Assembly: GCA_903842345.1 (NCBI GenBank)
Contig: CAIMLR010000017.1
Span: 33,960 to 97,959, forward strand
Reading direction: 5' to 3'
Length of the DNA stretch: 64,000 bases
DNA from: an uncultured Myxococcales bacterium
GTDB lineage: Bacteria > Myxococcota_A > UBA9042
The translations under genes and the position numbers were made by a program. Below the pieces are notes generated by a model. The model was not told where the DNA came from. It searched no databases and saw only the letters and a list, made by a program, of their open reading frames with translations. Positions 8,296 to 49,223 of the stretch are shown piece after piece (position 1 is the stretch's first letter; every line of letters begins with the position of its first letter).

Positions 8296-8304
8296 CGGCC
8301 GGGT

Positions 8305-14723: not shown

Positions 14724-14726
14724 GCC

Positions 14727-16058: not shown

Positions 16059-18157
16059 CGGCGTTCGAGCGCTTGAGCCCCGCGATGCAGTACCAGATCG
16101 TCAACGCTCTGGGCTTTCAGTCGCTGCGCCCGGTGCAGGAAGTCGCGATTCCGCCGATTCTGGACGGCGCCAACTGCGTGGTGCTTGCGCCGACGGCGGG
16201 CGGCAAAACAGAAGCGGCGTTCTTCCCGCTGCTCTCGCAAATGGACACGCACGGCTGGCAGCCGGTGTCGGTGCTGTACGTGTCGCCGATCCGCGCGCTG
16301 CTGAACAACCAGGAGGAGCGCCTGCGCAGCTACGCCACCGTGCTGGGGCGTCGTGTGGCGGTATGGCACGGCGACGTCTCGCAGCGGGACAAACGCAAGT
16401 TCCTGCAGGAACCCGCGGACATCCTGTTGACCACGCCTGAGTCGCTGGAAGTGATGCTGATGAGCAGCAAGGTGCCGTCGCGCAGGCTGTTTGCCGGTTT
16501 GCAGGCGGTGGTCATCGACGAGGTGCACGCGTTTGCCGGCGACGACCGCGGCAGTCACCTGATGGCCGTGCTGGAGCGCCTGTGCCGTTTCTGTGGCCGC
16601 GACGTGCAGCGCATTGGACTGTCGGCGACGGTTGGCAACCCGGAGGAAATCCTGACGTGGCTGCAGGGCTCGTCGACGCGGCCGGGCGTGCTGGTGTCGC
16701 CGCCACGGCCACCGTCCACGCCGGAGATTGTCATCGACTACGTCGGCACGCTGGAGAACGCCGCGCGGGTTATCGCGCAGATGCATCGCGGCAAGAAGCG
16801 GCTGGTCTTTCTGGATAGCCGGGCAGGCGTCGAGTCGCTGGGGCAGCACCTGCGGGATCTGGGCGTGGACACGTACGTGCTGCACTCGTCATTGGCGCCG
16901 GATGAGCGGCGCAGGAGCGAAGCGGCGTTCGCCGAGCGGCAGAACTGCGTCATCGTGGCGACCAGTTCGCTGGAGTTGGGCATCGACATCGGCGACCTCG
17001 ACCATGTGCTGCAGATTGACGCGCCACGGACGGTCGCCAGCTTCCTGCAGCGCATGGGGCGGACCGGGCGCCGTGCCGGGGCGACGTCGAACTGCACGTT
17101 CCTGGCCACGGACGATGACGCGCTGTTGCAGGCCGCGGCCCTTTTGCGCCTGTATCGCAATGGCTTCGTCGAGTCGGTAGTGCCGGTGACGCGTGCGTTT
17201 CACATCCTCGCGCACCAGCTGCTGGCGCTGGGGCAGCAGGAGCAAGGCATCCCGCTGGCCGACTGGTGGGCGTGGGTCGGCCAAGCGGCGCCCTTCAAGG
17301 ACATCACCGCCGACGAACGCACCGCGCTCCTCGCGCACATGATGGCGGAGCAGATTCTCGTTGAGGATGGCGGCCGTCTGAGCCTCGGCCCCCAAGGCGA
17401 AAAGCTCTACGGCGGAAAGAACTTCCTGCCGCTGTACTCGGTGTTCGACACTGCGGACAGCCTGGATGTCTGCTACGGCCAGCGTATCATCGGTAATATC
17501 GAGTCCACGTACGTCGAGCAGCAAGGCGCGGGCGACCTGACGTTCACGCTCGGGGCGCGGGCCTGGCGCGGGTTGTACGTCGATTGGCAGCGGCATCGCC
17601 TCTACGTGGAACCGGCAACCCACGCCAATGCGCCATCGTGGCGAGGTTCGCCCGCGTTCCTCTCGTCCGAGCTGTGCGGCGCCATGCGGGACGTGCTGCG
17701 GGACGAAGGTCCCGCACCGGAATGGTCCAAGCGAGCAGAGAGCCAGATGGATGCGGTGCGCAAGACACGTCTGCATCAGGCGGACGCAGACGGGCAGCTG
17801 CTGCCGGAGACGGACGGGCTGTCGCTCTGGACGTTTGCGGGCGGGCGGGCCAACCATGTGGTGGCGAAGGTGCTGCAGGAGCTGATTGGCGAGAAGGTGA
17901 CTGCAGACAACCTGCGGATCAGGTTCAGGAGCGGCGCTGCGGACGTGGAGAAAATTCAGGGTGCGATGCAGGTGCTGGCAGAAGAGCACCGGCCAAACCG
18001 TGAGGATGCCCTGCGGGTGGTGGTGAAGATTGCCAAGGCGAAGTTGAGCAAGTTCCAGCCCTGTTTGCCGCCGGAGCAGGAGGCGGAGGTGCTGGTGGGA
18101 CGGTTGGTGGATTTGGGGGTGGTCGGAGATTTGGTGCGGCGATTGGCGGCGGGGTGA
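16055..18157 (+). CDS. brxHI: BREX BrxHI Lhr-like DEAD/DEAH-box helicase
   Basis: Walker A VVLAPTAGGKTEAAF. Motif II VVIDEVHAF. Helicase C motifs QRMGRTGRR. The GTG start overlaps the brxD stop (GTGA). Confidence 0.85.
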   Translation: MTAFERLSPAMQYQIVNALGFQSLRPVQEVAIPPILDGANCVVLAPTAGGKTEAAFFPLLSQMDTHGWQPVSVLYVSPIRALLNNQEERLRSYATVLGRRVAVWHGDVSQRDKRKFLQEPADILLTTPESLEVMLMSSKVPSRRLFAGLQAVVIDEVHAFAGDDRGSHLMAVLERLCRFCGRDVQRIGLSATVGNPEEILTWLQGSSTRPGVLVSPPRPPSTPEIVIDYVGTLENAARVIAQMHRGKKRLVFLDSRAGVESLGQHLRDLGVDTYVLHSSLAPDERRRSEAAFAERQNCVIVATSSLELGIDIGDLDHVLQIDAPRTVASFLQRMGRTGRRAGATSNCTFLATDDDALLQAAALLRLYRNGFVESVVPVTRAFHILAHQLLALGQQEQGIPLADWWAWVGQAAPFKDITADERTALLAHMMAEQILVEDGGRLSLGPQGEKLYGGKNFLPLYSVFDTADSLDVCYGQRIIGNIESTYVEQQGAGDLTFTLGARAWRGLYVDWQRHRLYVEPATHANAPSWRGSPAFLSSELCGAMRDVLRDEGPAPEWSKRAESQMDAVRKTRLHQADADGQLLPETDGLSLWTFAGGRANHVVAKVLQELIGEKVTADNLRIRFRSGAADVEKIQGAMQVLAEEHRPNREDALRVVVKIAKAKLSKFQPCLPPEQEAEVLVGRLVDLGVVGDLVRRLAAG

Positions 18158-21380: not shown

Positions 21381-21799
21381 CATCGTCGTCTGCCAAAAAG
21401 CCCTCGTTCTATTTGTGCGAGCAAGAAATCGGCAAATTGTGCATTCAAGGTCTTCTTCTTGACGCACAGGCGATTTCCACTTCTTGCACGACGATTATTC
21501 TTTCGCCCCTTCGCAGCAGATTTCCTCCTCGCCTCGTGTTTCTTTCCGCGTCGCATTTCTGCTTTTTGCGGCGCGAATGCTTGCGGAGCGGTTTCAAGGC
21601 CCAATTGCCGCCGGACCTGGGCTTCCGCCGTGCCGGGCCACGCCAGCGCCCCCAAAAGTCGATGGAAGCATCCTCCCGGCCCCCAGCGACAACGACTGTC
21701 GCATTCGCGCCCGAGCCTCCACGTCCCGCTTGTGCGAAACCGGGCCATCGACAAGACTCGCCGCCAGCGCGAAGCGCGCACGCAACAGCGAGGCCGACG

Positions 21800-22801
21800 A
21801 TGTCCGATACCGTACTCCGCCACTGGACGATGCTCCGCCAGGTCCCGCGCCATCCGCGCAAGGTAGGCGCCGCACAATTGGCCCGAGTGCTCAGCAACGC
21901 TGGCTTTGACGTCTCGCGGCGATCCATCGAGCGCGACCTCAACAAGCTCTCGACCGTGTTCCCGCTGCGCTGCGATGACGAGCACAAGCCGTACGGCTGG
22001 TCATGGATGGCCGACGCGACCGCGTTCGACTTGCCCGCGATGGACGTTCACGCGGCATTAGCGTTCCGCATGGCCGCAGATCATCTGCACGCGCTGCTCC
22101 CCGAGGTGACGCGCAGCCACCTGGACCCGCACTTCCGGCGAGCGAAGGCCGTGCTCGATGGCCTGAATGACAACGTGCTCTCCGATTGGCCGGACAAAGT
22201 GCGCGTCATGCCAGCGGGCCAGCCGATGCTGCCGCCGGCGATCCCGCAGGACGTGCTGGAAAACGTGCAGGCGGGGCTGCTGGCGGAGAAACAATTGCGC
22301 GTCGTGTACCGCAAGCGCGGTGAGGCGGAGGCGCGGACGTACCTCGTGCATCCGCAGGCGCTCGTCTGGCGCGACGCGGTCGGGTACTTGCTGTGTATTT
22401 TGTGGAAATACGACGATTTGAAGCAGTTCGTGCTGCATCGCATGGAGTCAGTCGAGCTGGTGGACGAGCCGCGCCGTCCGCTGCCTGGCTTCTCGCTCGA
22501 CGCGGAGATCGCGACTGGCTCGTTTAGCTTCTTGCTGGCTGACCAGTCGATCGAGCTGGAGGTGCTGTTCCATGCATTCGCCGCAGTCCGGGTGCGCGAG
22601 ACGCCGGTGGCCGTGACCCAGGAGCTGGTCGAGCAGCCCGACGGCAAGATCCTGCTCCGCGCCACGCTGGCCGACACCGTGCAACTGCGGACGTGGCTGC
22701 TCAGCATGGGCGAGTACGCGGAAGTGCTGGGGCCGCCGGCGTTGCGCAAGTCGATCGCGACCAGCATCCGCGAGATGGCGGACAAGTACGCGGGCGACTA
22801 A
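21800..22801 (+). CDS. HTH plus WYL-domain transcriptional regulator (BrxR/CapW-like)
   Basis: ATG at 21800 (MSDTVLRHWTMLRQVPRHPRKVGAAQLARVLSNAGFDVSRRSIERDLNKL is an N-terminal wHTH like YafY/BrxR). WYL-type segment RVVYRKRGEAEARTYLVHPQALVWRDAVGYLLC. 333 aa. The track ORF extends upstream to TTG 21413 through a low-complexity leader. Confidence 0.75.
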   Translation: MSDTVLRHWTMLRQVPRHPRKVGAAQLARVLSNAGFDVSRRSIERDLNKLSTVFPLRCDDEHKPYGWSWMADATAFDLPAMDVHAALAFRMAADHLHALLPEVTRSHLDPHFRRAKAVLDGLNDNVLSDWPDKVRVMPAGQPMLPPAIPQDVLENVQAGLLAEKQLRVVYRKRGEAEARTYLVHPQALVWRDAVGYLLCILWKYDDLKQFVLHRMESVELVDEPRRPLPGFSLDAEIATGSFSFLLADQSIELEVLFHAFAAVRVRETPVAVTQELVEQPDGKILLRATLADTVQLRTWLLSMGEYAEVLGPPALRKSIATSIREMADKYAGD

Positions 22802-22870
22802 TCGGCAGCGGAAACGCATGCGACACGGATTGTCGCAGCCTTCCCGTACATTCTACGGCGGAGGTTTCCC

Positions 22871-24916
22871 ATGTTTGAATACGAACTCACAGCCGACAGC
22901 CACACTCGCCAATGCGCCATCTGGACCACCCGCCTGGTCCTCGCGGGCCTCGCGCACCATCCGCGTGGGCCTGACGCGTTGGATACCTTGGACACCGAGA
23001 CGCGGCGACTCGTTGGCCTGCAGCACACGCCGGAGCACTCGCCCCTTACGGTTGCTGCACTGCAAGACCGCCTAGCGGCGCTGGAACCTGACAAGTCGGC
23101 GCGCGGAGGGGCGCTGTTTGCCAACGTGACGATGCTCGGCGACTCGCTTGGGCTGTCGAAGTTGGAGCGCGACCTGCTGGCGCTCGCGGTCATGATGAAC
23201 ACGACGGAGGGTGTGAACGAGATCTTCTGGCAGATCGCGCCGGTGCCGTGGTCTCGCGTGGCGGCGATTCTGGCAGCGGTCCTGGAGTCGACGCCGGCGG
23301 AAATGCACGCTGCTCTCAGCCCTGGGGCGCCACTCGTCGCGACACGGCTGGTCAAGCGCGGTGGAGTGCGCAAACCTCAGCAACTGCTGGACTTGCCGGA
23401 GGGTTTTGTCGGGCTGATTCTGGAAGAACATAGCGACGCGGACGCGCTGGTCGCCAACCTGTTCCGCCCCGCGCCGCCTCCGACGCTGACAATCGCCGAT
23501 TTTCCGCACGTCGCGGCCGATCTGGAGCTGCTGGTGCCGATCCTCAAGACGGCGTACCGCGATGGGACACTCGGGTTTGACGTGCTCATCCATGGACCGC
23601 AGGGCACGGACAAGACGGAGCTGGTGCGGGTCATTGCGCATGAAGTCGGCGCGCGGCTGTGCGAAGTGAATCTCGTGGACAACGACGGCGATGCGCTGAG
23701 CGGCGGCAAGCGGCTGGCGGCGTGGGCGCTGTCGCAGGGGATACTGAGGCACAAACCCGGGTCATTGTTGCTGTTTGAGAAAGCGGAGGCCGTGTTTCCA
23801 TGCGACCCTCGGGCCAGAATATTCGGCGAGGAGCCGGAAAGTCGCGTTGGCGAGGGCTGGCTGAACCGCGCGCTGGAGACGCATCCGGTGCCCACGGTGT
23901 GGGTCAGCAACGCGATTGACCAGCTCGACCCCGCGTACCTGCGGCGCTTTGACATCGTCGTGGAGGTGGGGCCCGCGCCGGCGTCGATTCGGCGACAGAT
24001 GCTGAACCGGCATTTGAGCGCGCTACCGCTGGGCGATTCGTGGCTGGATCGCGCGGCAAACGACGTGCGGCTAGCTCCTGCGCACGTGAAGAGGGCGGCG
24101 CGGGTGGTGCGCATGCTGGAGTCGGACTGCGCTGTGACGACGGAAGCCGCGCTGGACCGCCTGCTGGAGCCGGGACTGGACGGAAGTGGCACCCGACGAA
24201 TTGGCGGGACAATGGACGTCGGGCCGTACGACCTGAGCTTGGTGAACGCCAGCCGCGACGTGCAAGCACTGGGTGCGGCTTTGGCCAAGAATCCGCGCGG
24301 GACGCTGTGCCTGTACGGGCCGCCGGGGACGGGCAAGACGGCGTTCGTGCAGCACTTGGCGACGCTGACGGGTTTGCCGCTGTTGCAGAAACGCGGCTCG
24401 GATTTGAGGGGCAAGTACGTCGGCGAGACGGAGAAGGCGATCGCAGCAATGTTCCGTCAGGCGCGTGACGAGCGGCGCATGCTGTTCCTCGACGAAGCGG
24501 ACACGTTCCTGCAGGATCGCTCGACCGCGCAGCGCCATTGGGAGGTGTCGTTCGTCAACGAACTGTTGGTGCAGATGGAGGCGTTTGACGGGCTGTTTGT
24601 CTGCGCGACCAACCTTGTGGACAGCCTGGACCGGGCGTCGCTGCGGCGATTTTCGCTGAAGATTCGCTTCGATCCGCTGAGCGCGGTGCAGCGGTGGGAG
24701 ATGTTGACGCAGCTCTGCGGGAAGACGCCAGAAGAGTCCCTGCGGGCGCGGCTGGACAAGGCGGACGGGCTGGCGGCGGGCGATTTCGCCGTGGTGGCGC
24801 GGCAGGAGGCGATGCTCGGCACGCAGGCATCGGCCGAGGCGATGGTCACGGCGCTGGAGGAGGAACTGGCGATGAAGTCCGGGACGGCGCGGCGGGTGGC
24901 GGGATTCGCCAGATGA
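22871..24916 (+). CDS. Tandem AAA+ ATPase (two AAA modules)
   Basis: First Walker A VLIHGPQGTDKTELV. Second Walker A LCLYGPPGTGKTAFV, with Walker B LFLDEADTF and a CbbX/SpoVK-like module. 681 aa. Starts 70 nt downstream of the WYL regulator. Confidence 0.8.
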   Translation: MFEYELTADSHTRQCAIWTTRLVLAGLAHHPRGPDALDTLDTETRRLVGLQHTPEHSPLTVAALQDRLAALEPDKSARGGALFANVTMLGDSLGLSKLERDLLALAVMMNTTEGVNEIFWQIAPVPWSRVAAILAAVLESTPAEMHAALSPGAPLVATRLVKRGGVRKPQQLLDLPEGFVGLILEEHSDADALVANLFRPAPPPTLTIADFPHVAADLELLVPILKTAYRDGTLGFDVLIHGPQGTDKTELVRVIAHEVGARLCEVNLVDNDGDALSGGKRLAAWALSQGILRHKPGSLLLFEKAEAVFPCDPRARIFGEEPESRVGEGWLNRALETHPVPTVWVSNAIDQLDPAYLRRFDIVVEVGPAPASIRRQMLNRHLSALPLGDSWLDRAANDVRLAPAHVKRAARVVRMLESDCAVTTEAALDRLLEPGLDGSGTRRIGGTMDVGPYDLSLVNASRDVQALGAALAKNPRGTLCLYGPPGTGKTAFVQHLATLTGLPLLQKRGSDLRGKYVGETEKAIAAMFRQARDERRMLFLDEADTFLQDRSTAQRHWEVSFVNELLVQMEAFDGLFVCATNLVDSLDRASLRRFSLKIRFDPLSAVQRWEMLTQLCGKTPEESLRARLDKADGLAAGDFAVVARQEAMLGTQASAEAMVTALEEELAMKSGTARRVAGFAR

Positions 24917-25027
24917 TGAAGCTGGCTCGGTGACGCCCTCGTGCGCGCCGCCTTCCAGTGAGGCACGCCAACCGCTAGAGTTGGTCGACTGGCCAGCCGC
25001 CGCGACCATGTTCCAAGAGGCAGACCC

Positions 25028-25753
25028 ATGAAGTTGCGCATCCTCTCCGACCTCCACTTCGAGTTCCACCCGGACGCTGGGCGTGGCTTCGTACGATCGC
25101 TCCAAGTCGAGCCAGATGAGGTCCTGGTCCTCGCTGGCGACCTCGCGACGCCCGAACTTCTGCCGCAGTCGCTGGACCTGCTTTGCCAGCGCTTTCGCCA
25201 CGTGGTGTTCGTCGCTGGCAATCACGAGTACTACGGCCGATCGCCCGACGAGGTGCACGAGATTCTGCGCGCGGCCGTGGGTCGCAACGCCAACTTGCAC
25301 TGGCTCGAATCTGCTGCCGTGATGATCGAGGAGCAGCGTTTCGTCGGCGCGACGTTGTGGTTTGGTGAAGAGGCGGGCGAACAGCCAGGACGCCATTTCC
25401 TAAATGACTTTGCCGTCATCGACGACTTCGAGCCTTGGGTCTACAGCCAGCATGAGCGCGCCGTTGCGTACTTGAGCCGCACTATCCGCGCTACGGATGT
25501 CGTCATAACCCATCACTTGCCGGCCCAGGCATGCGTCTCGCCGAAGTGGCGGAGCTCGCCGCTGAACCCGTTCTTCGTGCACGACATGGAGCCGCTCATC
25601 CGTGCGCGTCAGCCGAAGCTCTGGGTGCACGGGCACACGCATTCCGCCGTGGACGTGAAGGTCGGTCAGACGCGCGTCGTGGCGAATCCACTCGGCTACG
25701 TGGGGCATGAGGCGCAGGACGGGTTTATCGACCGACTGGTGGTGGAGGTGTAG
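25028..25753 (+). CDS. Calcineurin-like metallophosphoesterase
   Basis: Motifs LVLAGDL (GD), VAGNHEY (GNHE) and ITHHLP. 241 aa. Confidence 0.8.
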   Translation: MKLRILSDLHFEFHPDAGRGFVRSLQVEPDEVLVLAGDLATPELLPQSLDLLCQRFRHVVFVAGNHEYYGRSPDEVHEILRAAVGRNANLHWLESAAVMIEEQRFVGATLWFGEEAGEQPGRHFLNDFAVIDDFEPWVYSQHERAVAYLSRTIRATDVVITHHLPAQACVSPKWRSSPLNPFFVHDMEPLIRARQPKLWVHGHTHSAVDVKVGQTRVVANPLGYVGHEAQDGFIDRLVVEV

Positions 25754-25755
25754 TT

Positions 25756-25774
25756 AAATTTTACGTGATATCAC
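25756..25774. repeat. Short AT-rich motif copy (AAATTTTACGTGATATCAC) 2 nt after the metallophosphoesterase stop
   Basis: GTATTT..GTGATAC family. Contains the palindrome GTGATATCAC. Confidence 0.45.
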
Positions 25775-26502
25775 TCCCACAGGCCGCACCGCCATTCCGG
25801 TTACCTCTTGAAAAACCTCGTTGGCCCGTTTGTCGGGCGAATGCTACTTTGACGATCCGGCTCGTGGATGGTCGAGCCAGATGGTGGACCGTGGCCAAAA
25901 CGTCATCAACGCCTGGACAAAGTCTGCGAACGCTGTTGCGGGCAGCATTGGAAGCCGCGCGCGCAGCAGATGTGCCTTACGCGATCGGCGGTGCGCTCGC
26001 GATGCATGCGCATGGGTTCGAGCGCAGCACGAAGGACGTGGACATCTTCGTCGCGCAAGAGAACGCGTTCGCGCTGTTGCGTGCGCTACGTGTGCTCGGA
26101 TTGAAAGTCATTCCGATTTCCGAGCCGAACAATTATGCTGCTTATTTACCCAACACGACAGATCCCGAAGAACGCATCGATGTCATTGTGCCTGAAGGTG
26201 AGCCAGGGTTGAGCGCCATTGAATGGTCGGAAACTAAAGAACTTTTCGGGAGCGCGGCCCAAGTTTTCCCGCTCGACTTGCTGGTGTTCGCCAAGGGGTG
26301 CGCGTTGCGCCCCAAGGATGAATTCGACCTCGCCTCACTGATGGCGCGAGGCATGTTCGACCCGCGCCAGGTAAGCGAGTTGATTCGCTCGATAGACCCC
26401 GAAGGGGCGGATGAGTTCGATCGTGCGATTCAGCGGTTGACGCGGCCATCTCCGCCACGCCGACCGCCGCTGCTTTCTCGATTGCCACCCCGTAAGCGCT
26501 AA
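25765..26502 (+). CDS. Nucleotidyltransferase-fold protein (AbiEii/MNT-like)
   Basis: NTase signature AIGGALAMHAHGFERSTKDVDIFV (hGG...S..DhD). The GTG start is uncertain; the first ~45 codons may be non-coding. Confidence 0.6.
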   Translation: MISLPQAAPPFRLPLEKPRWPVCRANATLTIRLVDGRARWWTVAKTSSTPGQSLRTLLRAALEAARAADVPYAIGGALAMHAHGFERSTKDVDIFVAQENAFALLRALRVLGLKVIPISEPNNYAAYLPNTTDPEERIDVIVPEGEPGLSAIEWSETKELFGSAAQVFPLDLLVFAKGCALRPKDEFDLASLMARGMFDPRQVSELIRSIDPEGADEFDRAIQRLTRPSPPRRPPLLSRLPPRKR

Positions 26503-26725: not shown

Positions 26726-26935
26726 ATGAACATCAAAATCCTCCGCCTCGGTCATTCCGCCCGCCATCACGAAGCCGCTGCCGGCGCCACCGTCGGCGAA
26801 GTCCTGGACGCGGTCGACCTGCCCGCCGCCGGTCACGCCATCTCGGTCAACGGCTTGGGCGCCAGCACGACCACCGGCCTCAGCGACGGCGACGTCGTCA
26901 CGCTGGTCCCGAAGGTCGAGGGCGGCAGCAAGTAA
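26726..26935 (+). CDS. Ubiquitin-like (beta-grasp, ThiS/MoaD/BilA-like) protein, 69 aa, ending ...VEGG-SK
   Basis: ATG at 26726, preceded by AGGAG at 26711. 69 aa with a C-terminal di-Gly followed by two residues (VEGGSK). Sits immediately upstream of E2-like, JAB and E1 genes. Confidence 0.6.
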   Translation: MNIKILRLGHSARHHEAAAGATVGEVLDAVDLPAAGHAISVNGLGASTTTGLSDGDVVTLVPKVEGGSK

Positions 26936-27009
26936 GCGATCCCGCAACACATTCGCCCGCTGGGCCGCATCCGGTGCGTCCGGAGCGGCTCGGCTGGCGG
27001 GGAGGCAAC

Positions 27010-28026
27010 ATGCATCACTGTGACCAGACCATGGCCGCGTACCTGCTGGATTGGCAGGCGAAGCTCGGCTTGAACATCCGCTACCAGCGTTGGTCGGCGC
27101 GGTACACCGACCCGGCGCCTTTCCGCCGCGAGATTGAACTGTTGGGCCCGATTGCTGGGACCGCAGACGAATGCCGGTTGCCGTACAAGGACGGCGTGCA
27201 GACGGTCAACGTCGTGCACGGCCGTCCTCACACGGGCGAGCCGGTCGAGCTGACCATCGACGGCGAGACCTTCGTGGTCGCGTCTGTTGAAGGCCGGCGC
27301 GTGCGCCTGGCGTTCGATCTCGAGCGCCTGTTTGAAGTGCCGGGCGAGATCCAACCGGGCCTCATCCTGGAAGCGGTCCTGGGCGCGGCGTTGCCACTGG
27401 CAGCGGCGTACATCAGTGCCTACGACTGGGAGCGCGAGAAGGCGGAGTTCGGGGCGTGGATGGTGTCGTCGGTCGACGGCATGGTCCGCAACTGGAAGAA
27501 CGCCATCCGCGACAATGAATACGAGGCCAACCGCCTGACGTCGCAAATCAGCGGCCTGGTACGCAAGAACGGCGAGCTGCGTGAGCAGATTGTGGCGCTT
27601 GAAGCAACGACGCGCCCGGCGCAGGAGACCAAAGCGGCGGAAGAGTTCGCGGCGCTGGTGAAGATGATGCCGTCGCCGGTCGTGAGTGTGGAAGTCGACT
27701 ACGGCAAGCTGAGCATCGTGCTGGAGCCGCTCACGTTGGAGCACGACAGCACGGACTACCGGATGGGCAGCTATACGCTGACGGTCACCGCCGACAAAGT
27801 GCACATCTGGTCGGACGGCGGTTTCAGCTATCCGCACCCGCACGTGAGCAGCGACGGCGTGCCCTGCTGGGGCAATCTGGGCCCCGGCATTGGCAAGTTG
27901 CTCGGCGAGGGCCAGTACGCGGCGTTGGTCAGCGTGATTCTGGAGTTTCTCCACAGTTACAACGAGCGCGACGCGTACCGGCACATCGAGACCTGGGACC
28001 CGGATTACAACAGCGAAGACGATTAG
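27010..28026 (+). CDS. E2-like (UBC-fold) ubiquitin-conjugating enzyme homolog with a ~230-aa N-terminal extension (BilB-like)
   Basis: C-terminal motif YPHPHVSSDGVPCWGNLGPG resembles the E2 HPN(I/V)...G.IC active site (candidate catalytic Cys in VPCW). ATG at 27010, preceded by GGAGG. The track alternative is GTG at 26974. Confidence 0.55.
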   Translation: MHHCDQTMAAYLLDWQAKLGLNIRYQRWSARYTDPAPFRREIELLGPIAGTADECRLPYKDGVQTVNVVHGRPHTGEPVELTIDGETFVVASVEGRRVRLAFDLERLFEVPGEIQPGLILEAVLGAALPLAAAYISAYDWEREKAEFGAWMVSSVDGMVRNWKNAIRDNEYEANRLTSQISGLVRKNGELREQIVALEATTRPAQETKAAEEFAALVKMMPSPVVSVEVDYGKLSIVLEPLTLEHDSTDYRMGSYTLTVTADKVHIWSDGGFSYPHPHVSSDGVPCWGNLGPGIGKLLGEGQYAALVSVILEFLHSYNERDAYRHIETWDPDYNSEDD

Positions 28027-28061
28027 CGTCAGCGCGACCGGCATCGACAACAGACGGCCTC

Positions 28062-28088
28062 GGGCAGTTTCCACGGTGGAAACTGCCC
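28062..28088 (+). terminator. Perfect 12-13 bp inverted repeat (GGGCAGTTTCCAC-G-GTGGAAACTGCCC) followed by GCGCTTTTGG. Intrinsic terminator/attenuator-like hairpin between the E2 and JAB genes.
   Basis: Read directly. Located 36 nt after the E2 stop and 28 nt before the JAB ATG. Confidence 0.4.
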
Positions 28089-28115
28089 GGGGTCGTCGCG
28101 CTTTTGGAGACGAAC

Positions 28116-28715
28116 ATGAAAGTGAAACAGAATCTGCGGGTTCGCATCGACGCGGACGCCATGGAGCGCATCTGGCACTGGACCGACCTGGCGGCAGGCG
28201 AGTTTTCCTGCCTGGGGACTGTCGCCGACGACATCCTCGTTGGCGATGTGCGCCTGTTCGATCAGATCTGCACGGCGGCCAGCACGGAGCTGGACCAGGA
28301 GGCGCTGGCGAAGTTCCTCGTGACGCATCCTCAGCCCGAGCACGTGCGGGCGTGGATCCACAGCCACGGGCGCCTGGGGGTCTTCTGGAGCCAGCAGGAC
28401 GAGGCGTGCATCGAGGGCCTGGCCAACGAGGCGTGCCTGATCAGCATCGTGGTCAACAAGAAGCGCGAGTGGAAGGCGCGGATCGACGTCTGGCAGCCGT
28501 TTCGGCTGACCTTCGACGACCTGCCGCTGGAAATCCGCCTGCCCGACCAGAACCTGCGCGGCGAGTGCGAACGCCTGTTCAATGCGCATGTGGTCGAGAT
28601 GGCGCCGGTGCTGATGCCGGATTGGCGCGGTGGTGTGCGGCAGCAGCAGCAACAGAGCCAGCCGTATCGGGGCGGGTGGCCTGATTTTGACGACGATTTG
28701 GCAGACTGGAGGTAA
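28116..28715 (+). CDS. JAB/JAMM (MPN+) metalloprotease, a deubiquitinase-like peptidase (BilC/Cap3-like)
   Basis: JAMM motif E(FSCLG)...HSHGRLGVFWSQQD, which is HxHx7Sx2D. 199 aa from ATG 28116. The track start is TTG at 28104. Confidence 0.75.
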   Translation: MKVKQNLRVRIDADAMERIWHWTDLAAGEFSCLGTVADDILVGDVRLFDQICTAASTELDQEALAKFLVTHPQPEHVRAWIHSHGRLGVFWSQQDEACIEGLANEACLISIVVNKKREWKARIDVWQPFRLTFDDLPLEIRLPDQNLRGECERLFNAHVVEMAPVLMPDWRGGVRQQQQQSQPYRGGWPDFDDDLADWR

Positions 28716-28718
28716 GCA

Positions 28719-29342
28719 ATGAATTTCCATCGACAACTGGATGTGCTGGATGTTCCGCGGCTGGCGCGGACGCCCATCACGGTCATTGGCGCGGGAGCGG
28801 TGGGCAGCTTCACCGTGCTGGCGTTGGCAAAGAGCGGCGCGGAAAACATCACCGTTTGGGATGACGACAGCATCGAGAGTCACAATTTGCCGAGCCAGTG
28901 GTACCGCCTGGCGGATTTGGGACGGCCGAAGGTGCTGGCGCTCAAGGCGCTGGTGTTGGAGATGACCGGCGTGGACATCAAGGTGGTGCAAGAGCGCTTC
29001 CAGGGCGACGGTGCGACGGAACTGACCATCTGCTGCGTGGACAGCATGGACGCGCGCATCGCGTTGTGGAGGCAACTTCATCCACGGCCTGCGCTTTATG
29101 TCGATGCGCGCATGGGCGCCGAGGTCGGCAAGGTCATGTGCGTCGGCGCGTTCGGCTCCTGGTACGAGGAAACGCTGCACCCCAGCAGCGAAGCGTACCG
29201 GGCACCGTGCACGGCGCGCGCGACCATGTACTGCGCCAGCGGCCTGGCGGCTTTCATCGCCGGGCAAGTGGCGAACTACGCCAGCGACCGGCCCACCCGG
29301 GACGAGATGACCGTCGATTTTCGCAACGGAATCATCATCTAA
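28719..29342 (+). CDS. E1-like ThiF/MoeB-family adenylyltransferase (BilD-like)
   Basis: Rossmann motif ITVIGAGAVGSFTVLALAKSGAENITVWDDD. 207 aa. Starts 3 nt after the JAB stop. Confidence 0.8.
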   Translation: MNFHRQLDVLDVPRLARTPITVIGAGAVGSFTVLALAKSGAENITVWDDDSIESHNLPSQWYRLADLGRPKVLALKALVLEMTGVDIKVVQERFQGDGATELTICCVDSMDARIALWRQLHPRPALYVDARMGAEVGKVMCVGAFGSWYEETLHPSSEAYRAPCTARATMYCASGLAAFIAGQVANYASDRPTRDEMTVDFRNGIII

Positions 29343-29354
29343 CCGGAGGTTTCT

Positions 29355-29456
29355 ATGAGCTGGATTTTCACGGCCCTGACCAACTTCGCAAGGATCCTCG
29401 ACCTCTGCATCGCCATCGCGATGTGGGTGGGCGGGACCCGGGCGGCGTGGATCTGA
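29355..29456 (+). CDS. Candidate small hydrophobic peptide (33 aa, MSWIFTALTNFARILDLCIAIAMWVGGTRAAWI)
   Basis: ATG 12 nt after the E1 stop, with GGAGG 7 nt upstream. Below the ORF-track size cutoff, so read directly from the sequence. Confidence 0.3.
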   Translation: MSWIFTALTNFARILDLCIAIAMWVGGTRAAWI

Positions 29457-29531
29457 CGCACGCTGCGGCGTGACAGCGAGAAGTCCGGGGCGGTCAAGGT
29501 GGCCGTCCCGGGCTTTTTGCGATGGAGCAAA

Positions 29532-29930
29532 ATGAAGCCATTGGCAAAGAACGCGGGCGACATCCTGGACGCGCTGACAGCGGGACTGGAGATCGGCGGC
29601 GCGCGCAAGATCGACAACGGCACCTACATGGCCGTCCACGTGGACAGGCTGAGCCAGGCGACTTTTAGCGTCGCGCACTACTTCAAGCAGAACGGCGAAC
29701 TGGTGTGCGACCCGGACGGCGTGTTCCTCAAGACCGCCGCCGGCTGGTTGCCCGTGACGCTGCAGCTCAGCACCGGCCATTACACCGTGGCGGTCGAGTT
29801 GGACGGCAACGACAAGCCGACAGGTTGGCGGCCGCGGCAGTACCGCGAGTTGCACTCGTTCGCGGCGATGTGGCTGCGAAACATTCGCGAGCAGCAAGGC
29901 GGACTGCGCAATATCACCGAAAATACATGA
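29532..29930 (+). CDS. Hypothetical protein (132 aa)
   Basis: ORF co-directional with the Ubl-E2-JAB-E1 cluster. No recognisable motif. Confidence 0.45.
   Translation: MKPLAKNAGDILDALTAGLEIGGARKIDNGTYMAVHVDRLSQATFSVAHYFKQNGELVCDPDGVFLKTAAGWLPVTLQLSTGHYTVAVELDGNDKPTGWRPRQYRELHSFAAMWLRNIREQQGGLRNITENT
29906..29927. repeat. Short AT-rich motif copy in reverse orientation (rc: TGTATTTTCGGTGATATTGCGC), overlapping the last codons of the 132-aa ORF
   Basis: GTATTTT-CGGTGATA family. Confidence 0.4.
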
Positions 29931-29993: not shown

Positions 29994-30602
29994 ATGGACC
30001 AGGAGAAACTGCGGCTGCTGACGCGGCCATTCGCGGACATCAAGAGCCGGCCCGGCCGGAACGGTCAGGCGATCCAGTACGTGGAGGGGCACGCGATCGT
30101 GCAGCGGCTCAACGAGGCGCTCGCGGGCGACTGGTCGTTCCGCGTGCTGGAGCACGACGTGCGCGAGGGCGAGGTCATCGTGCTGGGCGAGCTGCGCGTC
30201 GGCGACACGGTCAAGCAGGCGTTTGGCGGATCGGAAGTGACGCGGACGCGCGAGGGCAAGGTCGTCAGCGTGGCGGATGACCTCAAGGCGGCGGCGACGG
30301 ACGCGCTGAAAAAGGCGGCGACGCTGCTCGGCGTGGGCATGCACGTGTACGTCGCGGAAGAGCCGCCGGCGCAGGTGCACAAGGGACCCAAGCTGGTGGA
30401 AGCGCACGACGAGCCCGACGTGCCGCCGAACAATCGGCTGACGCGCAAGCAGGCAGAGTTCATCGGCACGCTGGCGAAGTCAAACGGCATGGGAAAGCAC
30501 GAAGTGGACGAACTGGCGCAGCGGCGATTCGGCAAGTCGGCGGGATTCTTGACGGTAAAGGAGGCGAGCGAGTTCATTGCGGCGCTGACGGCGGCGGCGT
30601 AG
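29994..30602 (+). CDS. Rad52/Rad22-family single-strand annealing protein (phage-type recombinase)
   Basis: N-terminal motif GQAIQYVEGHAIVQRLNEALAGDWSFRV resembles the Rad52 ssDNA-annealing core (YIEGw.vi..aNeiFGf.GWS). ATG preceded by GGAGG. Confidence 0.55.
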   Translation: MDQEKLRLLTRPFADIKSRPGRNGQAIQYVEGHAIVQRLNEALAGDWSFRVLEHDVREGEVIVLGELRVGDTVKQAFGGSEVTRTREGKVVSVADDLKAAATDALKKAATLLGVGMHVYVAEEPPAQVHKGPKLVEAHDEPDVPPNNRLTRKQAEFIGTLAKSNGMGKHEVDELAQRRFGKSAGFLTVKEASEFIAALTAAA

Positions 30603-31457: not shown

Positions 31458-31499
31458 CCCACCTTCATGCAATCGACCAAACCGAACAGGAGCCCCATC

Positions 31500-32492
31500 A
31501 TGACCCAGATTTCGCACCGCATCTGCCAAGAACACCAGCAAATTCAATATTTTTCCCTACCGGCCGCTACGCCGCAGCACCGACATCGCCACGTCCTGCC
31601 GCACGGGACGAACTGGACGAACCTGTTCACTTCAATCGCGGGTGCAGATGGCACGGCGGACCGCTTCTTCGAGGAGCGGCGGATCAAATGGTGGTCGTCG
31701 CCGGTCACGGGCGATCCGCGCTGGCTGCGTGGGCCGACCCACAACGCGCTGAGCTCGCAAGTCGCGTGCGTCAACGTGCTGCTGCCATTGCGGGAAGACC
31801 CGGACGCGCTCACGGCGATGCTCCAGGCGTTGGATCCGGAAGTCGAGACGGTCGTCGCGGTGAACGACGGCCACACGGAGCGCCCTGCGAGCGTGGAGTT
31901 CGAGTGGGTTGGTGCCAAAGGTCACCGGTCGCTGGAAGGCACGGCGCCGACGCGCGGGCAACGCGTCACGAGCACGGACGCGGTGCTGGTCGCGCGGCTC
32001 AAGAACGGCGCGCTCCGCGGCTACCTGATGGAGTGGAAGTACGTGGAAACAGGCGATGAAGCGGACAAGCGTGCAGGGACGGAGGGCGAGACGCGACGCG
32101 GTCGATATCGCCAGCTGTTTGAGACGGTGTTCAAGACGGACGCGACGCTCGACAACTTCCTCGTCGATCCCGCGTACCAGCTGATGCGCCTCTCCCTGCT
32201 CGCGCGCCAGGTCCTCGACAAACAGCAGCTGCCGGGCGTGACCAGCATGCGGACGGTGCTTGTGTGCCCGCGCGAGAACTTCGCGTATCGCAAACTGCGC
32301 GCGGATGGCCTCCTTCGAGCGCGTTTTCAGGTCGATACGCTCGTCGAAGTGATGCGCGCCGGGCTGCGGGAGCCGCAGACTTTCATTGACACGTCGCCCG
32401 CAGAGTTGGTGCAGGCCGTGCGACGGGCACGAACGCCTGGCACCGACCGCGTGACTTGGCTCGCATACATGGCTCATCGCTACGGCTGGTGA
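31500..32492 (+). CDS. Hypothetical protein, possible PD-(D/E)xK nuclease fold
   Basis: D...GYLMEWKYVE suggests a D/ExK motif. ATG at 31500 preceded by AGGAG. The track start is 31467. Confidence 0.4.
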   Translation: MTQISHRICQEHQQIQYFSLPAATPQHRHRHVLPHGTNWTNLFTSIAGADGTADRFFEERRIKWWSSPVTGDPRWLRGPTHNALSSQVACVNVLLPLREDPDALTAMLQALDPEVETVVAVNDGHTERPASVEFEWVGAKGHRSLEGTAPTRGQRVTSTDAVLVARLKNGALRGYLMEWKYVETGDEADKRAGTEGETRRGRYRQLFETVFKTDATLDNFLVDPAYQLMRLSLLARQVLDKQQLPGVTSMRTVLVCPRENFAYRKLRADGLLRARFQVDTLVEVMRAGLREPQTFIDTSPAELVQAVRRARTPGTDRVTWLAYMAHRYGW

Positions 32493-32937: not shown

Positions 32938-33064
32938 ATGGGACTTACTACTCGCCCCCAGCAAATGAACGTTTCGTCTCAGCTGATGGAGATGATCGAG
33001 CGTCGCGTCGACTTCACTGGGATGGTGCTCTGTGGTGAGTTGGAGCAACTCGAAGGAATTGTCG

Positions 33065-36000
33065 ATGCCATACACGCACCTCGCCGACGCCGCCGATTTG
33101 AACTTGTGGGCGGCGCATCGTCACGCGGCCGCGGCGCTGCTACCAAAGCTGGTTCGGCGTCTAATCTTGCAGACGACCGACAGCGCCGAACGCGTTGAAT
33201 TCCGCGCGGGTGAAGGCGTCTACCTTCCTGGCTGGGACGGCGTCGTGTTGGCGGCCGCTGCGACCGCTTTCGTACCGCAAGGCGCATCCGTCTGGGAAAT
33301 GGGCGTCGGCGACCCCGGCGGCAAAGCGAACGAAGACTACAGCAAACGCACGGCAGACCCGCGTGGCGTCACCCTCGCCGACACGACTTTCGTATTCGTC
33401 ACGCCGCGTCGATGGCCAGGCAAGTCGGCGTGGCTTTCCGACCGCACTGCCGATGGGCTCTGGCGGTCGGTGCGAGCCTTCGATGCCGACGATTTGGAGA
33501 CATGGCTTGAGCACGCGCCGTCCGTCCACCTGTGGGTCTCTGCGCTCGTCGGCAAGCCTTCCGATGGCGTTCAGTCGTTGGACGACTGGTGGTCGGGGTG
33601 GTCAGCCGTGACCAATCCGCAAACGCCGGCGGCGCTACTTCTCGCGGGACGCGAAGACCAAGCCCAACGCATTCAGGCGTGGCGCGACGGCGACGGTTTC
33701 TCGCTGACCATCCGCGCGGACGCGCCCGACGAGGGCGTTGCATTCCTTGCGGCCCACGCGCAGGCGATCTCGGACGATACAAACCGCGAGCGGATCTTCG
33801 CTTCGACGTTGGTCGTCACCAGCGAGGCCGTCTGGACTCGGCTATGCAAGACGGCGACGCCGCTCGTGCTGGTGCAGCTCTTCCAATCGACCAGTGCGGT
33901 AGGGCAGGCACGCCGCGGGCACCGCGTTGTCGTTCCATCAGGCCGCGTCTCCAAGACCGCCGGAACCGCAATTGATCTGCCACGGATTTCGCGCGGGCCA
34001 GCCGAAGAGGCCCTGCGCAAAGCCGGTCTGACGGAACACCAAGCAACACCGCTCGCCGGCATCGCGCGGCGGAGCCTCACCGCTTTTCGCAGGAACCTGT
34101 CAGATGGCGCGGCGACTCCCGTCTGGGCGAGCCCCTCCGACGCGCGCACGCTGCTTCCTGCGCTTCTCCTTGGCCGTTGGCGGGACGCCGTTCCGGGTGA
34201 CGTCGCCGCCGTGGAGCGTCTCGCTCGCGTGTCATACGTGGACGCGATTGCTCCGCTCCGCCGGTGGTCGCTGGAGCCGGATCCGCCGATTCGGCAAGTC
34301 GCCGGGACTTGGTATTTGACCGCTCCCGAGGATGCGTGGTCTTGGCTCGCCCCGTCCCTTCTCGCGGCCGACCTCGACGCGTTCACAGAGCTGGCCGGCG
34401 ACGTGCTAGCCGCAGTGGACCCGAAGTTCGACCTTGCCGACCACGAACAGTGGCTGGCTCGTACTCGTGGACTGGTCGCCGTGCATTCTGAGCAACTGCG
34501 GATAGGGATCGCGCAAACGCTGGCGCTGATGGCGACCCGTGCAGATGAAGCGCACGCGGGCCTGGGTTTGCCGACCCGCGCGGCGATGGTCGTTCGGTCA
34601 GTTCTTGACCGCGCGCATGCTGACTGGCGGGTCTGGGCGACGCTTGGTCGCGCGCTTTCGGTGCTTGTCGAGGCGGCACCCGACGAGTTCCTGGGTGCCG
34701 TCGGTCGTGGCCTAGCAGGAGAACCACCGCCGCTGCGGGCAATCTTCCGCGACGCCGCTAGCTCACTGTTTGGCGAATCTCCCCATCCGAGCGTGATCTG
34801 GGCGCTGGAAACGCTCGCGTGGAGCACCGGGCACCTTTCAGCCGCTACTCTGGCGCTCGCCGGACTCGCGCGCATCGACCCGGGTGGAAAGCTGGCGAAT
34901 CGACCGGGACACAGCCTCCGGACCATCTTCCTGCTGTGGATGCCGCAGACTTCGGCCTCAATGGAACGTCGCCTCGAAGCCATCGACCTGCTCCGGCAGC
35001 GTGAGCCCACCGTTGCATGGAAGCTGATGTGCGACATCATGCCGACCGGCCACGACACCAGTTCGCATACGACGCGTCCGACGTGGCGCGACTGGGCGCC
35101 CGACGGAGAGATGGCGGTGTTGCATGCGGAAATGCTGAAGGGCTGGCGCGCGATACTGGATCGCCTGCTTCAGGATGTTGGCGTCGACGGCGTTCGATGG
35201 GCGGTGCTCGTGGACAAGCTCCAGTCGTTGCCGCAGGAATGGCGTGCCGATGTCGTGTCGCCCCTCGCGGCCCTCTCGAACGTGCCCTCGACGGTCTTGG
35301 AACCGAGGAATTTGCAGCGTGCAATCCGCCAGTTGGTCGGATTCCACAGGTCACATTCACATGCTGACTGGACACTGCCGCCGGCCCTCCTCGAATCGCT
35401 GGCCGCTGTTCACCAACGACTGGACCCAGTCGACCCGGTCGAGCGATACATGTGGCTGTTTGCGGCGGGCGCGCGCCTGCTGGACGGCTCGGAGTCGGAT
35501 GACTGGCGCAAAGAGCAGGAGGAGATCCAAGCGGCTCGTCAGGCTGCGATTCGAGAAGTCTTTTCCGCGGGTGGACATGCCGGCGTTGTGGCGCTTGCAC
35601 AGGCTGCCTCGATCCCTGAACTCGTCGGGTTCAGCTCCGGTCGTGTGGGCGTACTGACGGATGTCGAAGACAGAATTCTGAGCGAAGGGCTGGCGGCGTC
35701 CGATCCTGGGACCTCGTCGTTTGCATTCGGCTTGCTCAAAGGCCGCGCGTCCGTCGGCGGACAGCACTGGCTGGCCGGCCAGCTCGCAGGCGCTTCCGCG
35801 AACTGGACTCCCGACGCCCGGGCGTGTGTGCTCATGCTCGTGACGCCTGGCCCGACCGCCTGGGCAGCGGCAGATGCGTTTGGACGCGACACAGCACGCG
35901 CCTATTGGAAGCGCATCCCCTATTTCCACGTCGGCGAACTCACGAACGCAGCGGCCGCGGCATCGCTGTTTGTCGAGCACGGGCGTCCGTTTAGCGCGGT

Positions 36001-36850
36001 CGACCTTGTCGCGGCCGCCCTGTACCAGAACGTTTCGCTGGAACCGTCCACGGTCTTGGGAGTTTTGACCGCGGCGCTGACACCAGCGCCGGTCGAAGAG
36101 CCGCAGTCAGATGGCTTCGCCGACCATGTACTCAAGCTGATGGAGTCGGTTCAGGTGGCGCCGGAATTGGAGGATGATGCGGTCGCGCGCGTCGAGTGGC
36201 TCGGCATCCGCTTTTTCCGCCACTCGCACCGCGGGCATCGACCAGTTCGTCTCCACCGCGCGATGAGCCGCGACCCAGACGTGTTCATCTCGGCGCTCAA
36301 ACTGGTCTTCACGGGCGACGACATCCAAGCGGCCGACCACGACATCGGTCGAAACGAAGCGGCGGCCCACAACGCGTACGAACTTCTGTCCTCGTGGCGC
36401 GTGCTGCCTGGCAGCCAAGACGACGGATCGATCGACGGCGCTGCTCTGCTCGCTTGGGTGCGGAGCGCGCGTCAGTTGGCCGCGGCCTGCGGCCGGACCG
36501 GTATCGCCGATGACCAGATTGGCGCCATGTTGTCCGGCTCACCCGCGGACCCCGACGGCGCGTGGCCGCACCCGTCGGTTGCTGCGGTGATCGACGAAAT
36601 CTCCACCGAGGCCATGGACAGCGGTTTCCGTTGCGGAATCTTCAATTCCCGTGGCGTCTCGTCACGCCGCCTCTTCGAGGGCGGGGTGCAGGAACGGTCG
36701 CTCGCGGACACCTACCGCGAACGGGCCGCTGCGCTGTCGTCGCGATGGCCACGGACGGCGTCCGTTCTGCGCGCTCTCGCCGATACCTACGCTCGCCACG
36801 CAACGAGCGAGGACGAGGAAGCCGAGCGCGACCAAGACCTGGGATACTGA
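33065..36850 (+). CDS. Large hypothetical protein (1261 aa), orphan
   Basis: A long uninterrupted ORF with codon usage consistent with the host. ATG at 33065 preceded by GAAGGAA. No motif recognised by eye. Confidence 0.55.
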   Translation: MPYTHLADAADLNLWAAHRHAAAALLPKLVRRLILQTTDSAERVEFRAGEGVYLPGWDGVVLAAAATAFVPQGASVWEMGVGDPGGKANEDYSKRTADPRGVTLADTTFVFVTPRRWPGKSAWLSDRTADGLWRSVRAFDADDLETWLEHAPSVHLWVSALVGKPSDGVQSLDDWWSGWSAVTNPQTPAALLLAGREDQAQRIQAWRDGDGFSLTIRADAPDEGVAFLAAHAQAISDDTNRERIFASTLVVTSEAVWTRLCKTATPLVLVQLFQSTSAVGQARRGHRVVVPSGRVSKTAGTAIDLPRISRGPAEEALRKAGLTEHQATPLAGIARRSLTAFRRNLSDGAATPVWASPSDARTLLPALLLGRWRDAVPGDVAAVERLARVSYVDAIAPLRRWSLEPDPPIRQVAGTWYLTAPEDAWSWLAPSLLAADLDAFTELAGDVLAAVDPKFDLADHEQWLARTRGLVAVHSEQLRIGIAQTLALMATRADEAHAGLGLPTRAAMVVRSVLDRAHADWRVWATLGRALSVLVEAAPDEFLGAVGRGLAGEPPPLRAIFRDAASSLFGESPHPSVIWALETLAWSTGHLSAATLALAGLARIDPGGKLANRPGHSLRTIFLLWMPQTSASMERRLEAIDLLRQREPTVAWKLMCDIMPTGHDTSSHTTRPTWRDWAPDGEMAVLHAEMLKGWRAILDRLLQDVGVDGVRWAVLVDKLQSLPQEWRADVVSPLAALSNVPSTVLEPRNLQRAIRQLVGFHRSHSHADWTLPPALLESLAAVHQRLDPVDPVERYMWLFAAGARLLDGSESDDWRKEQEEIQAARQAAIREVFSAGGHAGVVALAQAASIPELVGFSSGRVGVLTDVEDRILSEGLAASDPGTSSFAFGLLKGRASVGGQHWLAGQLAGASANWTPDARACVLMLVTPGPTAWAAADAFGRDTARAYWKRIPYFHVGELTNAAAAASLFVEHGRPFSAVDLVAAALYQNVSLEPSTVLGVLTAALTPAPVEEPQSDGFADHVLKLMESVQVAPELEDDAVARVEWLGIRFFRHSHRGHRPVRLHRAMSRDPDVFISALKLVFTGDDIQAADHDIGRNEAAAHNAYELLSSWRVLPGSQDDGSIDGAALLAWVRSARQLAAACGRTGIADDQIGAMLSGSPADPDGAWPHPSVAAVIDEISTEAMDSGFRCGIFNSRGVSSRRLFEGGVQERSLADTYRERAAALSSRWPRTASVLRALADTYARHATSEDEEAERDQDLGY

Positions 36851-49018: not shown

Positions 49019-49180
49019 GACCAGCTCCGGTGGCGGGATGAGCGCCGTGGTGCGCCGACCGACGCGACGCGTGCCGTCAGGGTAGCACAATTGGAGATTG
49101 GGCAGTCGCGGCAGACGGCCGGCGCGAGCGGCAAGAAGCCAAGCGGCGATGGGGAAATATGCCGGAGACAGCTGGACCTG

Positions 49181-49207
49181 CGGCCGAATCACGGAAAATA
49201 CGCGGTG
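49181..49207. repeat. Short AT-rich motif copy in reverse orientation (rc: GCGTATTTTCCGTGATTCGG)
   Basis: Lies just downstream of the stop of the 49224-50534 minus-strand gene. Confidence 0.4.
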
Positions 49208-49223
49208 GGCACCTGCCTCGGCG

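Follow-up and report, generated by a model that had tools for sequence, protein, structure and literature searches.

Positions 26726-29342 of a 64,000 nucleotide stretch from an uncultured Myxococcales bacterium (contig CAIMLR010000017.1, positions 33,960 to 97,959; the whole stretch is referred to here as the window) contain a four-gene operon that we interpret as a mobile-element ubiquitin-like conjugation cassette, one member of a large family found on phages and integrative elements, which on balance seems somewhat more likely to serve the element that carries it than to act as a host defense of the Bil type. The operon encodes a ubiquitin-like modifier (Ubl), an E2-like conjugating enzyme we call E2L, a JAMM metallopeptidase and an E1-like adenylating enzyme, in that order. 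All four genes lie on the + strand, are separated by intergenic gaps of only 74, 89 and 3 nt, and show the codon-position GC signature of real genes (including GC at third positions, GC3) in a window of ~65% GC. The same arrangement of four genes is seen again at dozens of independent loci, in widely differing genomes of 28 to 66% GC, and is for that reason far beyond chance. A first-pass annotation of the stretch had described four co-directional, closely spaced genes here: a beta-grasp-sized Ubl of 69 amino acids (aa) with a diglycine and a two-residue tail, a 338 aa protein with an E2-like C-terminal motif behind an N-terminal extension, a JAMM peptidase with the full active-site motif, and a 207 aa ThiF-type E1 containing GAGAVGS. 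That description held gene for gene and with exact coordinates; it is right on biochemistry and layout, wrong on the family to which the operon was assigned, and probably wrong on its genomic role.

The first gene (26726-26935, + strand) begins 11 nt downstream of an AGGAG and encodes a 69 aa pro-Ubl that matches Pfam ThiS (E 3.9e-8, 34.1 bits, cut-off 22.5). Judged from its sequence, the product is a ThiS-family modifier with a single ThiS/MoaD-type beta-grasp domain and a C-terminal diglycine. It ends in PKVEGG-SK, where the diglycine is G66-G67 and is followed by a Ser-Lys tail. Across 38 related loci PKVEGG is invariant and the tail of 1-4 residues is variable, the sequences found after GG beside a JAMM gene being K, R, Q, C, N, SK, SL, AR, TR and AHHA. 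A distant relative from Anaerolineae encodes an E2L, an E1 and a Ubl that ends exactly in GG, and the region read around these three genes contains no recognizable JAMM open reading frame (ORF). Because tails accompany JAMM genes and a Ubl ending in GG occurs without a recognizable one, obligatory maturation of the Ubl by the JAMM peptidase fits the pattern. Among the IMG/VR phage versions of the operon (L036, L042, L047, L048, L051-L053, L058), some encode a Ubl of two beta-grasp domains that recalls ISG15 or polyubiquitin, and others carry two tandem or flanking E2L paralogues.

E2L, the 338 aa product of the second gene (27010-28026, + strand), consists of a beta-rich region at residues ~20-100, long helices with coiled-coil character at 116-218, and a predicted UBC-fold domain at ~200-325; the N-terminal extension noted in the first pass is therefore a real part of the protein. 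The UBC domain contains an HPH motif (residues 276-278; 27835-27843, + strand) and the candidate catalytic Cys286 (27865-27867, + strand), arranged as HPH-x7-Cys. The segment YPHPHVSSDGVPCWGNLG is invariant in 29 homologues, and across 36-50 diverse members the sole invariant residues are H276, P277, H278 and C286. The family profile aligns to human UBE2D2 with a hhalign E value of 1.2e-5 (with the UBE2D2 sequence entered by hand), such that HPHVSSDGVPC falls on HPNINSNGSIC and the E2L motif coincides with H75-P76-N77 and Cys85 of UBE2D2, with His in place of Asn. The assignment of a UBC fold is upheld by this alignment of the HPH and Cys on the HPN and Cys85 of UBE2D2. A model of the domain has the N-terminal helix, antiparallel beta-meander, active-site loop and C-terminal helices of a UBC fold, and the closest structural neighbors of E2L are canonical E2s (UBE2D, UBE2S, UBE2C, UBE2K). 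As modeled, E2L is a member of the UBC/E2 superfamily. Searches with the single sequence and a close-family profile returned no match for it in Pfam, NCBIfam, PADLOC, PHROGs or PDB sequences.

The N-terminal part of E2L is variable across the family. Distant members (P0047, P0052, P0070, P0100, P0120, P0158) have in addition a C-terminal extension of 100-300 aa, directly after a conserved WDPD motif, that has many CxxC-type cysteine pairs and acidic residues and is absent from the window protein; a module for zinc binding, E3-like activity or interaction is one possibility. Acidic, tryptophan-containing conserved tails end both E2L (ETWDPDYNSEDD, 27990-28026) and the JAMM peptidase (GWPDFDDDLADWR, 28620-28715), and these could be docking motifs for a common partner.

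The third gene (28116-28715, + strand) encodes a 199 aa JAMM/MPN+ metallopeptidase, most probably starting at the ATG at 28116; an alternative TTG at 28104 would give 203 aa. Residues E29, H82, S83, H84, S92 and D95, shared without exception by 25 diverse homologues, make up the complete E...HxH-x7-S-x2-D zinc site, with E29, H82, H84, S92 and D95 as the predicted active site. The protein has a Gln-rich linker in addition to the acidic tail. The family profile matches Rpn11 and a Caldiarchaeum Rpn11-like protein (E 2.6e-9), with CSN5 and archaeal JAMM1 weaker; the single sequence gives a weak Prok-JAB match (E 0.0075) and a weak match to NCBIfam PRTRC_A (E 0.0097, 15.5 bits vs a cut-off of 101.8).

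The fourth gene (28719-29342, + strand) encodes a minimal 207 aa adenylating enzyme that matches Pfam ThiF (E 2.5e-18, 66.5 bits, cut-off 28.1) and has GAGAVGS at residues 24-30. Homologues from 22 other loci are 199-220 aa long and align as one adenylation domain, in which G24, G26, G29, D48, D50, N56, K71, D108, R113, R131 and C164 are invariant. The family profile is nearest to UBA5 (8e-18) and ThiF (6e-17), ahead of Cap2 (5e-10) and BubCD (2.5e-9), and these similarities place the protein in the E1/ThiF/MoeB adenylating-enzyme family. Cys164 (29208-29210), within an APCTA motif, occupies profile position 173; the alignments to PDB sequences end at ThiF 184 and UBA2 176, and C164 is in register with ThiF residue 184 and UBA2 residue 173, which we take to be the reactive or catalytic cysteines of those enzymes. 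The match to NCBIfam PRTRC_ThiF (E 5e-10, 39.1 bits) is far below its cut-off of 144.75, and PADLOC reports partial 'E1-E2' matches that derive from the E1 domain alone.

An exhaustive HMMER search recovered E2L homologues in 2,219 clusters at E<=1e-3, falling to 561 at E<=1e-10. A word-indexed homologue search returned 41 close relatives, all without a name and labeled 'hypothetical protein' by their sources, and a second such search, made with a diverse alignment, recovered practically the same relatives. No Pfam domain was found in 10 distant or 29 close members. As far as we found, E2L is a large family without a Pfam match or functional name; neither it nor DUF6908 (below) was found described in the literature, our coverage of which was incomplete, so that an earlier description is possible.

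Viral members were sampled from IMG/VR with a degenerate DNA motif for HPH-x7-C-x-GN, which yielded 26 loci, every one confirmed as E2L by hidden Markov models (HMMs). Nearly all encode E2L-JAMM-E1, with or without a Ubl placed before or after, on contigs of up to 231 kb and 28-66% GC. Within the surroundings covered, up to 14 kb around each match, the neighbors include genes for DNA methylases, RecA/DnaB-like ATPases, endonuclease VII, single-stranded DNA-binding protein, uracil-DNA glycosylase (UDG) and a small terminase. BFVD matches of E2L are uncharacterized proteins of uncultured Caudovirales, and five further loci (L030-L034) lie in integrase, PolA or phage-like contexts. A blastn search of PLSDB plasmids gave no match to the operon. 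Short ThiF-like E1s of phage FpV4, Xanthomonas jumbo phages and crAss-like phages were set aside and not counted as members, as no E2L was detectable there by HMM and a weak JAB was present in FpV4 only. The E1s of the cultured Flavobacterium phage FpV4 (L061) and Xanthomonas phage PhiXhv-12 (L062) are ~30% identical and annotated 'thiamine biosynthesis protein', and the FpV4 gene adjoins a weak JAB-like ORF, a UDG and an exonuclease VIII; they may represent a related but distinct phage system.

The closest loci to the window are in metagenome-assembled genomes of uncultured Myxococcales, where 2-6 diverged copies occur per genome. In most loci, nucleotide homology to the window sets in ~20-45 nt ahead of the Ubl start codon (as early as 26621 in L001), and it ends sharply at either the E1 stop (29336) or the stop of a Rad52 gene (30602). 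Comparison of these loci reveals two kinds of backbone. In type A, to which the window belongs, variable cargo is followed by Ubl-E2L-JAB-E1, a 30-37 aa ORF, DUF6908 and Rad52; relatives continue with a PDDEXK exonuclease after Rad52 and, further on, a divergent HTH_3 repressor-like gene. In type B the operon sits between genes for Replic_Relax and a TrwB/DUF87 coupling-type ATPase on one side, and a DnaG-type primase, a SprT-like gene and a tyrosine integrase on the other. The upstream cargo of type A changes each time: BREX (bacteriophage exclusion) type 2 in the window, and DUF1156/DUF499, DUF1156 with EMARD/FRG, or type I restriction-modification (R-M) elsewhere. Because the cassette is kept while this cargo varies, we regard it as a stable backbone block of one prophage-like or integrative lineage, flanked by a cargo hotspot. 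Within the window, no tRNA, att site or integrase turned up that would mark the limits of the element.

Three genes follow the operon within the type A block. A small hydrophobic ORF of 33 aa (29355-29456, + strand) lies between the E1 and DUF6908 genes; hydrophobic ORFs of 30-37 aa occupy the same place in L025, L063, L065 and L067, and L013 has a near-identical peptide, although a link between this ORF and the conjugation system is uncertain. The DUF6908 protein (143 aa, 29499-29930, + strand; Pfam DUF6908 E 2.2e-19) is co-conserved with the operon in type A elements, and a 202 aa Rad52/Rad22-type single-strand annealing protein (29994-30602, + strand; Pfam Rad52_Rad22 E 1.1e-9) ends the homology block. 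In a metagenome scan for this Rad52, the E1/Ubl operon was found upstream in 7 of 8 informative loci at >=48% identity. Rad52 and DUF6908 were considered as obligatory partners of the cassette and rejected, being absent from type B elements and phage loci, with distant Rad52 relatives lacking the operon in turn.

The first-pass annotation had matched the operon to the BilABCD antiphage operons by content and order. The order Ubl-E2-JAB-E1 stands; membership in Bil is not supported, given the single-domain E1 and the lack of any PADLOC or NCBIfam model match to the Ubl or E2. Type II Bil systems are the CEHH/6C operons, which also encode four separate proteins in the order Ubl-E2-JAB-E1 (Chambers et al.), and the window operon resembles them further in having a single beta-grasp Ubl, a tail after the Gly that requires removal by the JAB, and no dedicated E3. 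It differs in its E1. In type II systems BilD has several domains, namely an inactive and an active adenylation domain and an inserted CYS domain bearing Cys417 (Chambers et al.), whereas the window E1 has one adenylation domain in 207 aa and its candidate cysteine is on the crossover segment. The E2 probably differs too: BilB is of the diverged CEHH type, and the window E2 combines an HPN-like HPH-x7-Cys with a 200 aa N-terminal beta-domain and coiled coil, and BilB was not among its structural neighbors. Type I Bil shares the same parts and order and a C-terminal Gly on the Ubl as the presumed conjugation site, and a few BilA homologues have an overhang of 2-9 aa after this Gly. However, type I BilA, from the ISG15-like system of Collimonas, has two fused beta-grasp domains in 163 aa and ends in Gly (Hör et al.), whereas the 69 aa window Ubl has one domain, even if some phage members of its family are di-Ubls. 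From the ~70 kDa E1~Ubl band in Hör et al. we infer that the type I E1 is a far larger protein, and no match by sequence model was found.

The settings appear to differ as well. BilABCD conjugates its Ubl to the central tail fiber of phage, and Bil operons have mostly been reported from Rhizobiaceae defense islands; the family described here is found on phage and integrative-element backbones. The first pass had expected a defense-island setting, and the operon does not look like a free-standing system in such an island: it adjoins a variable slot of defense cargo, yet is itself a conserved block of mobile-element backbones, and CapH/CapP were not seen beside it. Moa, Thi and thiouridine genes, which would have indicated a cofactor setting, were likewise not found near the operon in the inspected loci.

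Other known systems were compared as well. Canonical eukaryotic E2s such as UBE2D, UBE2S, UBE2C and UBE2K have Asn rather than His in the motif and lack the large N-terminal extension; pairwise similarity to them is undetectable, and E2L is encoded by prokaryotic mobile elements with a ThiF-sized E1 as its partner. The PRTRC clusters of integrative and conjugative elements (ICEs), which we equate here with class 6d, have a comparable set of Ubl, E2-like, JAB and E1-like proteins, and the window E1 and JAB give weak echoes of theirs. All NCBIfam PRTRC scores are nevertheless far below cut-off, there is no PRTRC_C match, and neither ParB nor the PRTRC B/D/E/F partners accompany the operon; moreover, the class 6d E2 lacks the classical histidine (Iyer et al. 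2006), which is invariant in the window family. None of classes 6a-6e of Iyer et al. 2006 fits. Bub operons and type II CBASS between them use Ubl-E2, JAB-E1 and E2-E1 fusions. Bub (6E/DUF6527) operons are characterized by Ubl-E2 or E2-E1 fusions and a DUF6527 serine protease, whereas the proteins here are separate and DUF6527 was not found among the scanned window neighbors. Type II CBASS (an antiphage signaling system based on cyclic oligonucleotides) has a Cap2 E2-E1 fusion, Cap3 and a CD-NTase, none of which is present or conserved here, and the window E1 resembles UBA5 and ThiF more closely than it does the E1 of either Bub or CBASS.

A working model for the cassette can be drawn from these features. 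The JAMM peptidase would remove the Ser-Lys tail, exposing Gly67 of the Ubl, a step suggested by the universal GG-plus-tail and the intact JAMM site. The 207 aa E1, presumably a ThiF-like homodimer, would adenylate Gly67 and then probably form a thioester on Cys164. The Ubl would pass from there to Cys286 in the UBC domain of E2L, for which the fold, the invariant HPH-x7-Cys and the alignment to UBE2D2 were computed. More speculatively, E2L might use its own N-terminal domain and coiled coil to select the target and transfer the Ubl to a lysine with no separate E3, and removal of the mark by the JAMM peptidase is possible too. In the window the cassette would be the first conserved block of the early or recombination region of an integrated prophage-like element of a Myxococcota-type host, placed directly downstream of the variable slot that holds BREX type 2 and other defense-like genes. 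Service to the element could mean host take-over, counter-defense, or control of the element's own replication and recombination proteins.

We favor service to the element because the cassette is constant while the neighboring defense genes vary, because it lies among replication, recombination and transfer genes, and because it occurs on large viral contigs. Several observations weigh against this interpretation or against parts of it. Thioester formation, conjugation and target are steps we infer rather than observe. The catalytic loop of E2L has low confidence in the full-length model but high confidence in the domain model, and the N-terminal domain can be described only as beta-rich. Among ~25 more distant Rad52 relatives with >2 kb of upstream sequence, none has the operon, so the operon is not needed for recombination as such. 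The 'viral' label of the IMG/VR contigs is the database's own call, the sample is biased because its loci were drawn by an exact-motif scan, and E2L was not detected in the cultured phages of INPHARED by tblastn with two E2L proteins or by HMMs. Finally, prophages often carry defense systems, and since defense cargo adjoins the cassette, a Bil-like exclusion function is compatible with every context seen.

That function, a Bil-like antiphage defense or superinfection exclusion in which the Ubl is attached to a structural protein of an invading phage and the E2 N-terminus is the recognition module, is in our judgment a serious rival account, less likely than service to the element. The parts list and order are identical to those of Bil, the Ubl requires pre-processing by the JAB as in type II, the cassette lies directly beside BREX type 2, type I R-M or DUF1156/DUF499 in related loci, and the E2 N-terminus varies across the family as expected of a recognition module in an arms race. 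It is harder to reconcile with a cassette that stays constant while neighboring defense genes change, that sits between transfer and replication genes in compact integrative elements, and that, on viral contigs as long as 231 kb, has DNA-metabolism genes as neighbors; nor are the component families those of Bil, with a minimal E1 and no PADLOC or NCBIfam defense-model match for Ubl, E2 or JAB. We consider it very improbable that the operon instead makes a sulfur carrier for small-molecule biosynthesis, as a thiocarboxylate of the CysO/Mec+ or QbsE/QbsD type and without protein conjugation. GG-plus-tail carriers trimmed by JAMM enzymes do exist in sulfur-carrier pathways, the Ubl is of the ThiS family, and the E1 profile is about as near to ThiF as to UBA5; but such a pathway would not explain an obligatory UBC-fold partner with an invariant HPH..Cys, the inspected loci contain no rhodanese, cysteine desulfurase, Moa, Thi or thiouridine gene, and the setting is that of a phage or mobile element. 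Also improbable, though less so, is a module for addiction or self-regulation, in which opposing conjugation to and deconjugation from element or host proteins would stabilize the element or time its excision and transfer, and which would play no part in conflicts with other phages. Iyer et al. 2006 speculated that prokaryotic E1/E2/JAB/Ubl clusters (classes 6a-6e) are addiction systems; the extension of this idea to PRTRC-like clusters is our own. The backbone position between relaxase/coupling-protein and primase/integrase genes, the multiple resident copies stably kept per genome and the weak echoes of PRTRC_ThiF and PRTRC_A are in its favor, but these scores are far below their cut-offs (39 vs 145 bits and 15.5 vs 102 bits), the class 6d E2 is without the HPN-type histidine that is invariant here, the loci contain no toxin-like gene, and addiction makes little sense on large viral contigs of apparently lytic size.

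To our knowledge, the only demonstrations of ubiquitin-like conjugation in bacteria to date come from host defense (CBASS type II, Bil) and from Bub operons. The cassette appears to package the same chemistry differently, pairing an E1 the size of ThiF with an E2 that looks canonical and includes its own extension, with mobile elements as carriers. If the element-serving interpretation is true, it would be a prokaryotic-virus counterpart to the use of ubiquitination by eukaryotic viruses, and, should the proteins of hosts or rivals be what the element acts on, it would open up a new class of phage-host interaction; a defense function would instead make the cassette a new and compact Bil-like type. 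We suggest, tentatively, that phages and integrative elements of many bacterial phyla use a complete cascade of their own on host or element proteins, and that the E2-JAMM-E1 lineage bears on the origins of the eukaryotic ubiquitin machinery. Were this so, the HPH-x7-Cys E2, Rpn11-like JAMM and 'PCT'-cysteine E1 would form a lineage not recognized before. Whichever interpretation holds, the features of these three enzymes are one more observation bearing on the prokaryotic origins of ubiquitination. The small parts (69, 338, ~200 and 207 aa, no E3) are also attractive for biochemistry.

The remainder of the window contains further genes of interest. An apparently complete BREX type 2 (Pgl-like) set spans 358-18157 and encodes a PglW-like protein with NERD and Ser/Thr kinase domains (358-4749), a PglX-like Eco57I/DUF7008 methyltransferase (4771-8295), a 1215 aa DUF6079-like protein (8305-11952), PglZ (11949-14723), a BrxC/D-family ATPase (14727-16058) and a DEAD/Lhr-like helicase (16055-18157). 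Between this set and the Ubl operon, co-directional genes at 21413-26502 form a candidate defense cluster, consisting of a WYL/WCX regulator, which lies 4 kb upstream of the operon, a 681 aa double-AAA ATPase that is IetA-like (phrog_10401, E 5.7e-78), a metallophosphoesterase corresponding to PADLOC PDC-S10 and phrog_1649, and a 245 aa nucleotidyltransferase (NTase)-like protein. In other loci the Ubl operon is not accompanied by this cluster. Its weakly NTase-like ORF (25765-26502, E 0.0025) was considered as a CBASS or class 6b-type partner of the cassette and rejected, since the homology shared between loci sets in only with the Ubl gene.

Immediately downstream of the conserved block is a PD-(D/E)XK 'REase-ARP' nuclease (31467-32492, E 6.5e-30), with a 1272 aa protein without a Pfam match downstream of it (33032-36850). 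About 10 small co-directional ORFs of 100-230 aa occupy 41909-46858, several of which match one and the same stretch of L019 and are apparently paralogues. A group of genes with eukaryote-like domains extends over 47669-56982 and encodes a Kazal/antistasin-domain protein (47669-49354, - strand), an ADP-ribosylglycohydrolase (52491-53894), a dual-specificity phosphatase (54554-55186, - strand), a YqaJ-type exonuclease (55324-55944) and an ankyrin-repeat protein (55945-56982).

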